DNA from: Bacteroidota bacterium
GTDB taxonomy: Bacteria; Bacteroidota; Bacteroidia; 2-12-FULL-35-15
Direction: 5' to 3'
DNA: 64,000 bases
Assembly: GCA_052389695.1 (NCBI GenBank)
Contig: JBQTHQ010000021.1
Span: 24,295-88,294 of the forward strand
Shown one piece after another: positions 19,921-27,252 of this stretch (position 1 is its first letter; the number at the start of each line of letters is the position of its first letter). Both the position numbers and the translations under genes were made by a program. The notes under the pieces were generated by a model. It saw only the letters and a list, made by a program, of their open reading frames with translations. It did no database searches and had not been told where the DNA came from.

Positions 19921-22900
19921 ATGAAAAACTTTTTCCTAAGCGTTACAAAAATATTGAGTGCTGCTCTGTTTTTTTTCACAAGTACTTTAACCGCTGCCAC
20001 CTACACCGTAACCAGCACAACCAACGGAACAACTACCGATGGCGTTTCATTACGTTGGGCAATTACACAAGCAAATACCGCAGCAGGAAATATCATTGCT
20101 TTTAATATTTCAGGGGTGGCTCCGCATACCATTTCACTTAGCAGCGCATTACCAAATTTAACCAAAGACAATACCACCATTGACGGAACAACGCAACCTG
20201 CAAACGGTTATACGGGAGCAAGTCCGAAAATTATTATTGATGGAAATAATTTAATTAGCAGGGGAATAGAAGCAGGAGCAAATAAAGACGGAATAAAAAT
20301 ATACGGACTGTATATCAAAAGATTTAATCAGTACGCTATTTATCTTCCAGGTAATGAAAATCATATTATAGGTGACATTAACAAAGGAAATGTGATTAGC
20401 GATAATGGAAATGGGAGCGCAAGTGATGCCGGTATTTTTATAAAAGGAGGAACCATCAGAGGCAATATCATTGGAATGACACCGAGCGGTAATTCGGATA
20501 AGGCTAACGAAGGATATGGTATTTATGTAAACGGCGGACTGGCTGTTATAGGTGGTTCAGTAAGTGGTGAAGGAAATATTATTTCTGCCAATACTAAAGA
20601 CGGGATTTATTTGGTAAGCGCACACAATACCATCATTGAGGGAAATACTATAGGAACAAACAAAGATGGCACAGCTGATTTTGGAAATGGAGGAAGCGGA
20701 ATATACATGCTAAACTCTAACGGGGTAAAAATTGGAGGAGGCGGAGCAGGAGAAGGTAATTTGATCTCCGGCAACAATGCTAATGGAATTTATAATGAAG
20801 ATGGGAATAATGTGGTCATCCGTGGAAATAAAATAGGAACCGATGTAACAGGAACAATAGCCATAGGAAATACAAGCAATGGAATAGCTATGATCTCAAG
20901 CGCCAATAGTGGAACTATAGGAGGTGGAAATGCGGGACAGGGAAATCTTATTTCAGGCAACGGAGGCAATGGAATACATTTTTCAAATCCTGATAATGCC
21001 ATTATTAAAGGAAATAAAATAGGAACGGATATTACTGGAACGGCCAATATAGGCAATTCCGGTTATGGAATATTCATCACAGGTAATTCCAACTCCAACA
21101 ACATAGGAGGAGCGGGGGCAACAGATGGAAATATCATAGCCTATAATGGCAACAGCGGGGTAGGAATAGACGGGCTGTTCACTATCAATACATACAGTAA
21201 TAATATAACAAGAAACAGCCTTTTTTGTAACGCTGCTGCTGGAAATACACTGGGAATAAGCTTAATAAACAATGGCAATAATGGGGTAGCAACACCTGTT
21301 ATAACAACAGTAAACTCTACTACGGTAAATGGAACATCCGAAGCAAACGCAATAATAGAAATTTTCAAAGACAATGATAATTGCAGTAGCTGCCAGGGAA
21401 AAACATATTTTGGAACAACAACCGCAAATGCTTCGGGAAACTGGAGCTTTGCCGGAAGCTTCTGCGGAGAAACAATTACAGCTACTGCTACCACTACAAC
21501 TAAAGGAACATCGCAATTTGCAAGCTGTGTTTCTTTACCACAGGTAATTTCCAATGCTGGTGCCGATCACACTATTATTTCAGGTGGTTCAGTTATGATT
21601 GGTGGAAGCCCAACAGCATCAGGAGGTACAGCTCCCTATACTTATTCATGGAGTCCTGCTATAGGATTAAATTCTTCTACCATATCTAATCCAATAGCTG
21701 ATCCGGTAACTAGCACTTTATATACATTAACTGTAACTGATACGAAAGGATGCTTTTCAACTGATACAATATTTGTTACTGTATCTGTGGATGCAATTAT
21801 GCCACCATTTTGTGGGATTGATTCCATACTAATAAACGATACAGGGTTTTTTCAAAGAAATGCACAATTGGAAATTGATCTACAAAACTATATTGCTACA
21901 AGAACGCAAGCTACACTTTTTACTATTCCAGTAGTAGTGCATGTAATTCACAATTCTGCAGCTGCATATGGAACAGGAGGTAATATCAGCTTTCAACAAA
22001 TTCAATCACAAATGGATGCTTTAAACGCGGCTTTTCAAAGAGATTATGCTGAATATAACCAGCAGCTACATGGAACCAAAGCTGAAAACACTCAAATAAA
22101 ATTTTGTCTAGCCACTATTCCTGCCGGAGTAGCTTCGTGGGCAGTGAATCCCAATACAGGAGTAGAAGAATGTGGTGTAATGCGTTATCCCATAGGACCG
22201 GGTTATATTGATGGACAAATATATAACACGGCAAATAATGATGCGTCAGCTCAGTTACTTGTAAATCGTACTCACGGAACCCCTGGTTTATTTCCTTTTA
22301 ACGAGTATTTAAATATATGGGTGGTACAAGACATTACAGGTGGGACTATGGGTTATGCTACAATGCCTGTGTCCTCATTCCCTTTAGATGGTATTGTTAT
22401 AAGGGCCGATATTTTTGGAGATAATACTACCGGCAATAATTTTATGTTACATCCTGATTTTAGGCAAGGTAAAGTACTGGCACATGAAGCGGGACATTAT
22501 CTGCAGCTGTTCCATACATTTGACGATATGTTTAATCTGAATGTTACCGGTTGTTATGGTGATTTATCAGGGAATTGTGCAACAGCGGGCGATGGTTGCT
22601 GTGATACTCCTCCAACAAGAATAGATACGCCTAATCGTTTTCCTGGATGTGCGGTAGCTGATAATACATGTACGGAAACATATAATGGTGGGCTTAATGA
22701 TCAGGAAGAAAATTATATGACTTATTCCCAGGATATATGTATGAATACTTTTACTGCAGATCAAATAATGCGGATGGAGTTTGCGTTAGTTGGTCCACGG
22801 TTTAATTTATGGACAGATGAAAATCTTGCAGCTACAGGAACAACACCGAATGGACTACAATGTTCATGTGAACGCCTGGTAGCCAATATAATTTATGGCC

Positions 22901-27252: not shown

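Follow-up and report, generated by a model that had tools for sequence, protein, structure and literature searches.

A giant zinc endopeptidase zymogen of the M43B ('lower pappalysin') family, most likely catalytically competent and exported through a type IX secretion system (T9SS), appears to be encoded in a 64,000-nucleotide (nt) stretch of contig JBQTHQ010000021.1 from a Bacteroidota bacterium (hereafter the window). The gene is a single uninterrupted open reading frame (ORF) at 19921..27252 of the forward strand, stop codon included, with a product of 2443 amino acids (aa); an identical protein from a metagenome-assembled genome (MAG) is held at NCBI as 'PKD domain-containing protein [Bacteroidota bacterium]' (P0121). 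Its zinc-binding motif, HEAGHYLQLFH, carries glutamine (Q862) at position 8. A preliminary description of this DNA had called the glycine at that position of HEXXHXXGXXH otherwise invariant, treated the glutamine as an unusual substitution, and offered an inactive pseudo-protease as one option. From the comparisons that follow, Q862 would stand in for the Asn or Glu present in the nearest relatives with a neutral or slight tuning effect, and would not inactivate the enzyme. The gene and its protease unit have these coordinates:

19921..27252, + strand: whole gene, T9SS cargo protein (ORF; identity to P0121)
21784..21900, + strand: prosegment with cysteine-switch Cys631 (PPFCG; codon nt 21811-21813), from its alignment column and the match to mirolysin
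21901..22875, + strand: M43B catalytic domain, aa ~661-985 (PF05572, PDB sequence matches, AlphaFold2, Foldseek)
22483..22515, + strand: extended zinc-binding motif HEAGHYLQLFH, aa 855-865, from the sequence
22711..22725, + strand: Met-turn NYMTY, M933, with 'tyrosine-switch' Tyr935, aligned to ulilysin NYMDY

Assignment to M43B is supported by sequence and by predicted structure. The Pfam family Peptidase_M43 (PF05572) matches aa 795-955 with 39.4 bits against a cut-off of 23, and a comparison of aa 631-990 with PDB sequences returned ulilysin (E 5e-18), mirolysin (E 3e-13), PAPP-A2 and PAPP-A. For aa 619-990, an AlphaFold2 (AF2) model based on 52 homologs reached a mean predicted local distance difference test score (pLDDT) of 86 and a predicted template modelling score (pTM) of 0.90. 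Its best Foldseek matches in the PDB were ulilysin, mirolysin and their zymogens (E 1e-17; template modelling score on the target 0.74-0.78, and 0.77 for ulilysin), with PAPP-A/PAPP-A2 ranked next and ADAMs after them, and the model aligns to the pro-forms 8CDB (pro-ulilysin) and 6R7V (pro-mirolysin). Thus, Pfam, PDB sequence matches, AF2 and Foldseek agree on the pappalysin/ulilysin/cytophagalysin-like placement that had been proposed.

The residues expected of an active enzyme, and of a latent one, can be read from the sequence and its alignments. The motif supplies the zinc ligands and general base as H855, E856, H859 and H865, with Q862 encoded by CAG (nt 22504-22506); the motif itself had been read correctly and was placed one base off. 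The GDGCCDTPP loop that was said to follow it lies at aa 890-898. Alignment columns that are invariant or nearly so include H855, E856, G858, H859, H865 and the cysteines at 886, 910, 917 and 940. The Met-turn NYMTY (aa 931-935; M933, Y935) aligns to NYMDY of ulilysin, and the Tyr in this region is the 'tyrosine switch' (PMC11674741). Upstream, the alignment column of C631 (in PPFCG) holds Cys in no fewer than 90% of the 53 M43 zymogens aligned, with the consensus 'CG'; stand-alone relatives have the corresponding 'CG' after their signal peptide, and in mirolysin the zymogen's zinc is blocked by the equivalent Cys23 ('QRTCG') (PMC8259862). None of the hallmarks of a pseudo-protease (a lost zinc ligand, catalytic Glu or Met-turn) is seen in the residues of aa 855-935. 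The protein therefore reads as a complete prosegment and catalytic domain that lacks none of the catalytic and latency residues and differs from the textbook motif at the variable position 8; four conserved disulfide cysteines are there as well.

Position 8 is far from fixed among metzincins of this type. The clan motif given in the 2024 cytophagalysin paper is H-E-x-x-H-x-x-G/N-x-x-H/D (PMC11674741), and ulilysin itself, the structural prototype, reads HEIGHWLNLYH, with Asn at this position. In a first sample of 115 motif-bearing best matches from a 90%-clustered protein collection, the residue was G in 69, N in 37, D in 7 and A and F in one each; the ten closest motif-spanning relatives in that collection all have N. 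When 1.84 billion representatives of 50% clusters were searched exhaustively with HMMER, 9,535 relatives emerged, and 139 of the best 150 gave G76, N31, S8, A5, D4, R4, E3, Y3, F3, T1 and H1. Combined (n = 254), the counts are G145, N68, D11, S8, A6, F4, R4, E3, Y3, T1 and H1. The nearest relatives, at 46-52% identity, have N, E, S, T or G, with Glu in the close relatives P0243 and P0249. Q862 lies outside the textbook G/N of HExxHxxG/NxxH, while H855, E856, H859 and H865 fit. Within this clade, no position of the motif is under less constraint than position 8. The glycine cannot be called invariant when ulilysin has Asn, the literature motif admits G or N, and 41 of the 254 relatives (16%) have neither. 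Nor is the view of glutamine as a striking departure supported, since the residue stands at the motif's most variable position and recurs elsewhere.

That recurrence was seen when a single genome of each species was scanned for DNA coding for HE.GH.[L/F]Q[L/F].H. The scan returned at least 120 matches, a number that speaks to recurrence and not to frequency; a back-of-envelope estimate puts the expected chance matches at ca. 35, and the short or low-complexity ORFs in the set are probably of that kind. At least 53 in-frame ORFs match an M43 profile made from our own alignment, at least 12 of them strongly (67-436 bits). Among the matches listed, the strong ones come from Ignavibacteriota, Streptomyces-type actinomycetes, Winogradskyella, Polaribacter, Cytophagales, Saprospirales and others. 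Well-aligned members retain HE..H, DTP and N.M.Y, and all three Gln-bearing ORFs that were checked pass the Pfam M43 cut-off (58.8, 53.9 and 36.3 bits). Because the nearest neighbours of the Gln-bearing M43 proteins have N or G, glutamine seems to have arisen several times independently; it has been kept in both members of one pair that is 85% identical. Glutamine that was common and catalytically competent in homologs had been named as what would refute the earlier view; in the proteins compared it is recurrent, though rare. Outside M43, archaemetzincin-type (M54) ORFs also carry Gln (L034, 72.2 bits; L081, 68.9 bits), and HELGHT[LF]QL.HC is found in the M54-type loci L016, L034, L081, L089 and L091. 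Two matrixin-like (M10) ORFs, L001 and L007 (31 and 27.5 bits), have Gln at position 8 as well. Like the M43 cases, these M54 and M10-like metzincins retain the remainder of the active site.

The residue's structural setting bears on whether the enzyme could be dead. The AF2 model has pLDDT values of 93-96 in the region of the motif, and its active-site helix stops at aa 860, immediately ahead of Q862, which is consistent with the usual turn toward the third His. Q862 is placed where this helix gives way to a turn of the chain, and the family has G, N, D, S, A, E, R or other residues there. A pseudo-protease scaffold, in which Q862 blocks the turn that brings His865 to the zinc and the M43 domain, catalytically dead, serves only as a binding or structural module of a large surface adhesin, would be in keeping with the absence of Gln from the 254 close relatives, with the adhesin-like modules (beta-helices, immunoglobulin (Ig)-like and PKD) that dominate the protein and with relatives that bear non-enzymatic heads on the same scaffold (RCC1 in P0122, Kelch in P0388). 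We regard it as highly improbable, because position 8 varies, Gln recurs and all other catalytic features are intact: relatives with intact active sites tolerate R, E, Y, F and H at this position, Gln occurs in independent lineages and is conserved in the 85%-identical pair, the model shows a canonical helix end at high confidence, and a protein that had lost its function would not be expected to keep all its other catalytic and latency residues. We give very little credence to the idea that Q862 is adaptive and alters zinc-site geometry, stability or latency (for example, in a slower or differently regulated enzyme). In its favour, a change from Asn to Gln takes two nucleotide substitutions (AAY to CAR), the Glu of P0243/P0249 is one step from Gln, and Q was kept in a pair of diverged Streptomyces-type proteins; against this, the wide spread of residues at position 8 indicates weak constraint, and no lineage-wide fixation of Q was seen.

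Several points weigh against a competent protease zymogen as we describe it. None of the 254 nearest relatives has glutamine at position 8, a rarity that could mean it comes at a cost. Neither a paper on HEXXHXXQXXH nor an assayed Gln-bearing metzincin turned up in a literature search, and we know of none that has been assayed. The AF2 model is zinc-free. Purifying selection on the gene would be visible in full-length orthologs, and the protein-collection search found none for the 2443-aa protein. The signal peptide and the cleavage site are both by-eye calls, and the roles suggested for the beta-helices derive from fold class alone. Even so, a catalytically competent zymogen is the reading we consider probable.

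The protease unit is embedded in a long series of modules, which, together with the parts listed above, account for the following segments of the gene:

19921..19995, + strand: probable Sec signal peptide, aa 1-25, MKNFFLSVTKILSAALFFFTSTLTA, read from the sequence by eye
19999..21525, + strand: N-terminal right-handed parallel beta-helix repeat arm, aa ~27-535 (TIGR03804, homolog identity, GN.I repeats)
21556..21783, + strand: K319L-like PKD / Ig-like module, aa 546-621 (PF22352, 33.6 bits)
22882..23118, + strand: PKD domain, aa 988-1066 (PF18911 (PKD_4), 57.4 bits; PF00801, 45.9 bits)
23119..23970, + strand: two beta-rich modules conserved in the family, aa ~1067-1350 (BLAST cover in many family members)
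23983..24510, + strand: pair of Ig-like (K319L/SprB-type) modules, aa ~1355-1530 (internal and inter-protein similarity)
24508..26400, + strand: second right-handed parallel beta-helix, aa ~1530-2160 (AF2, Foldseek, 15-homolog alignment)
26437..26916, + strand: alpha-helical bundle, aa ~2173-2332 (AF2 secondary structure, pLDDT 75-92)
27016..27243, + strand: type A T9SS C-terminal sorting domain (CTD), aa 2366-2441 (PF18962, TIGR04183)

Residues 1-25 are probably a Sec signal peptide, with a hydrophobic N-terminus followed by an A-x-A-like site. At the other end, aa 2366-2441 of 2443 match Por_Secre_tail (PF18962) with 39.5 bits (cut-off 27) and TIGR04183 with 40 bits (cut-off 23), which upholds the proposal of a T9SS cargo with a type A CTD. 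Among Pfam profiles, Peptidase_M43, PKD_4, K319L-like_PKD and Por_Secre_tail all pass their cut-offs and Beta_helix falls below; taken with NCBIfam and AF2, they support the multidomain layout that had been described, an M43 domain with Ig-like and PKD modules and two beta-helices. The beta-rich modules at aa ~1067-1350 have no Pfam match, and aa 1066-1360 no significant match among PDB sequences. The Ig pair at aa ~1355-1530 resembles aa 540-621 of the same protein, the Ig repeats of P0124/P0168, and neighbouring cargo genes.

The N-terminal arm opens with a CSLREA-like motif, VSLRWAITQAN (aa 42-52), and carries GN.I repeats. Within the N-terminal region the NCBIfam para_beta_helix repeat TIGR03804 scores 21.3 bits (cut-off 19.45), and Pfam Beta_helix covers aa 156-318 with 17.3 bits, under its cut-off of 25.9. 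The arm (aa ~27-535) is 53-63% identical to the N-terminal regions of four Bacteroidota T9SS proteins (P0122, P0124, P0134, P0136) and 35-42% identical to repeats of giant NosD, parallel beta-helix and 'CSLREA' proteins; strong homologs carry PF13229/PF05048, and a comparison of aa 25-540 with PDB sequences gave no significant match. These similarities indicate a genuine beta-helix arm of ~510 aa, so that the parallel beta-helix reported earlier stands and its length of 350 aa does not. We rejected the idea that the arm is a mis-assembled or separate gene, as the frame is continuous and the identical 2443-aa protein was deposited independently; MAG assembly chimerism may nonetheless lie behind the 2443-aa gene.

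The second beta-helix and the bundle that follows it were modelled together. Fifteen homologs of aa 1530-2365 were collected and aligned, and the AF2 prediction (pLDDT 77, pTM 0.71) places ~630 residues in short, regularly spaced strands, with the helical bundle (aa ~2173-2332) after them. The Foldseek matches of this model are weak, yet all are right-handed beta-helix proteins; strands and matches together confirm, at the level of a predicted model, the right-handed (pectin-lyase-like) fold class of the ~600-aa region that had been called beta-helix-like. Pfam, NCBIfam and Foldseek allowed no enzymatic family to be assigned. Residues invariant in the 15 homologs are C1587, W1591, E1611-D1612, possibly H1583, and many ladder Asn. 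C1587, W1591 and E1611-D1612, which are not ladder residues, could mark a binding or catalytic site. The main function might reside in the beta-helices (as polysaccharide lyase, hydrolase, epimerase or glycan binder), with the M43 domain accessory or self-processing and the protein chiefly a carbohydrate-active or adhesive surface enzyme. The invariance of E1611, D1612 and W1591 and the conservation of the module behind different heads speak for this; the lack of a CAZy-type family match at the sequence level in Pfam and NCBIfam, and the fact that most invariant residues are ladder Asn or Gly, structural rather than catalytic in type, speak against it, and we think it unlikely.

For the protease zymogen that we favour, a route to activity can be sketched from mirolysin (PMC8259862) and general knowledge of the T9SS. 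The protein would be exported by Sec, fold in the periplasm and pass through the T9SS directed by its CTD, which PorU would cut off, leaving the protein released or attached to the surface. The thiol of Cys631 on the zinc would keep the zymogen latent until a cut in the linker between prosegment and catalytic domain, plausibly between T660 and R661. This candidate maturation site is a reasonable guess because R661 lies near the ulilysin maturation Arg position (two residues upstream of it, relative to the IPVVVHV strand) and the M43B family, which prefers Arg/Lys at P1' (PMC8259862), cuts before such residues. Because the prosegment is internal to the 2443-aa protein, activation would also detach the N-terminal arm, separating the beta-helix/Ig arm and prosegment from a product made up of catalytic domain, beta-helix and CTD. 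The beta-helix and Ig modules are probably a stalk, polymer or surface binders, or both, that position the protease.

Most of this architecture is shared. BLAST against all collected proteins showed that the layout of aa 619-2443 is common to T9SS M43 proteins of 1700-2900 aa from metagenomes, in the order prosegment, M43, PKD, two beta modules, Ig pair, beta-helix, helical bundle and CTD. In these (for example P0273, P0349, P0317, P0301, P0288 and P0287) the matches cover all regions of aa 619-2443. Like the 2443-aa protein, these large proteins retain HE..H, the Met-turn and the 'CG' prosegment; unlike it, their M43 unit directly follows the signal peptide, without an N-terminal beta-helix arm, and position 8 usually holds G, in some cases N, S, D or A, where our protein has Q. 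The 2443-aa protein thus has the layout of a large T9SS M43 protein with an added N-terminal arm of 620 aa. P0134 and P0136 carry the arm at their N-terminus, P0124 has it internally (and, when checked, did not continue into an M43 unit), and it is present in P0122 too.

P0122, an 1850-aa RCC1-repeat T9SS protein from a Bacteroidota MAG, shares the N-terminal arm at 53-55% identity and the half that comprises Ig, beta-helix, helical bundle and CTD at 45% identity over 1100 aa, whereas its middle is an RCC1 beta-propeller in place of prosegment, M43, PKD and beta modules, with no protease. The C-terminal module of beta-helix, helical region and CTD also stands behind RCC1 (P0382) and Kelch (P0388) heads, and the helical bundle is conserved together with the beta-helix in P0122 and P0381-P0390. 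By these alignments, the 2443-aa protein is a mosaic of mobile modules. We propose tentatively, as a possibility short of an even chance, that T9SS surface proteins of this lineage form a cassette system: a conserved stalk at the C-terminus, made up of Ig pair, pectin-lyase-like beta-helix, helical bundle and type A CTD, and an N-terminal beta-helix arm that moves on its own would combine with interchangeable heads (M43; RCC1 in P0122/P0382; Kelch in P0388) swapped by recombination between cargo genes, with a remnant at 28853-29114 as a scar, and activation would sever the arm so that one precursor gives two surface or secreted products. As to the earlier statement that the architecture is uncharacterised, this is fair for the whole protein; the part from M43 to CTD recurs in metagenomes, and a multidomain M43 protein, cytophagalysin CPL1, has been studied.

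The gene sits in a cluster of T9SS cargo genes. The organism has a T9SS, as seen from a pair of PorP/SprF genes (252 and 263 bits) and the many genes with a CTD in the window, at least eight of them cargo genes; the core components PorK/L/M/N and SprA were not seen within the window. Neighbouring genes of the system are:

9237-10415, + strand: CHU_C
10525-11445, + strand: PorP/SprF
11454-13502, - strand: weak CTD
13507-17904, - strand: PKD, Ig_7, CHU_C
18069-19631, - strand: S8 subtilase with type A CTD (PF00082, 160.8 bits)
27315-28763, + strand: CHU_C
28901-31231, + strand: CTD
34903-35841, - strand: PorP/SprF
39594-42179, - strand: CHU_C

The S8 subtilase gene is divergent from the M43 gene and shares a 289-bp intergenic region with it, so that serine protease and metalloprotease cargo are adjacent. 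Downstream by 1.6 kb, at 28853-29114, lies a 263-bp copy of 26841-27103 (87% identity, with a core of ~200 bp above 92%) in which the helical bundle's end, the linker and the CTD's first half are represented. The copy falls after the CHU_C gene 27315-28763 and just upstream of nt 29126 ('MRSLLVFTLILISF'), probably the true start of the cargo gene that comes next (the next but one after the M43 gene), and the mechanically called ORF 28901-31231 starts inside the copy. The segment is probably a gene remnant left by recombination or duplication, which fits a history of recombination among cargo genes. Both PorP/SprF genes lie near type B (CHU_C) genes, in the spans 9237-11445 and 34903-42179; type B cargo is usually paired with a dedicated PorP-like partner. 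Next to the second of them and the CHU_C (type B CTD) gene 39594-42179, an ORF of 1023 aa (36492-39566, - strand) carries a C1q domain at its C-terminus (PF00386, 36.3 bits; cut-off 23.7); bacterial C1q-like domains are uncommon. A further ORF of 1423 aa (46433-50707, - strand) joins a CarboxypepD_reg-like domain to one of the glyoxalase/dioxygenase superfamily (PF00903, 71.9 bits), an unusual pairing.

The main value of these findings is corrective: the glycine of HEXXHXXGXXH is no safe marker of activity or inactivity in M43, and 'pseudo-protease' calls made from position 8 of the motif would err for about one in six family members. They also outline a recurrent, unstudied family of T9SS M43 proteases of ~2000 aa with a beta-helix/helical stalk, and hint that recombination swaps the heads on a shared stalk, which is a point of modest interest for the diversification of the Bacteroidota surface proteome. 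The 2443-aa protein is an unusually large new member of M43 with a rare, recurrent and probably tolerated residue at position 8; its modular build of stalk and head is the only feature with some, if mild, novelty, and the M43 gene opens no long-standing question.

Three characterised enzymes are close enough for comparison. Ulilysin of Methanosarcina acetivorans (M43B; PDB 2CKI, pro-form 8CDB) is the best match in sequence and fold, with an identity of only ~28%. Both proteins have a prosegment followed by a catalytic domain with IPVVVHV as first strand, a residue other than Gly at position 8 (Asn in ulilysin, Gln here), the DTP segment, an NYM.Y Met-turn with the Tyr switch, and the conserved disulfide cysteines; ulilysin, however, comes from an archaeon, is small with a single domain, and has neither flanking modules nor a T9SS signal. 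Cytophagalysin CPL1 from Cytophaga sp. L43-1 (137 kDa) is, like our protein, a multidomain Bacteroidota peptidase of the pappalysin family, with a prosegment cysteine, catalytic domain, Met-turn, Tyr switch and long Ig-like tail (PMC11674741). Its tail consists of eight Ig-like domains, with neither beta-helix nor helical bundle, and its catalytic unit is N-terminal, whereas that of the 2443-aa protein is embedded. Mirolysin, a KLIKK protease of Tannerella forsythia (PDB 6R7V/6R7W), shares with it both M43B membership and the status of T9SS cargo: each has a signal peptide, a profragment with a 'CG' cysteine switch, a catalytic domain and a C-terminal sorting domain, and the route of export and CTD removal put forward here is that of mirolysin (PMC8259862). 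The two differ in scale, mirolysin being small, with its profragment straight after the signal peptide, whereas the 2443-aa protein has 620 aa before the profragment and ~1450 aa after the catalytic domain.

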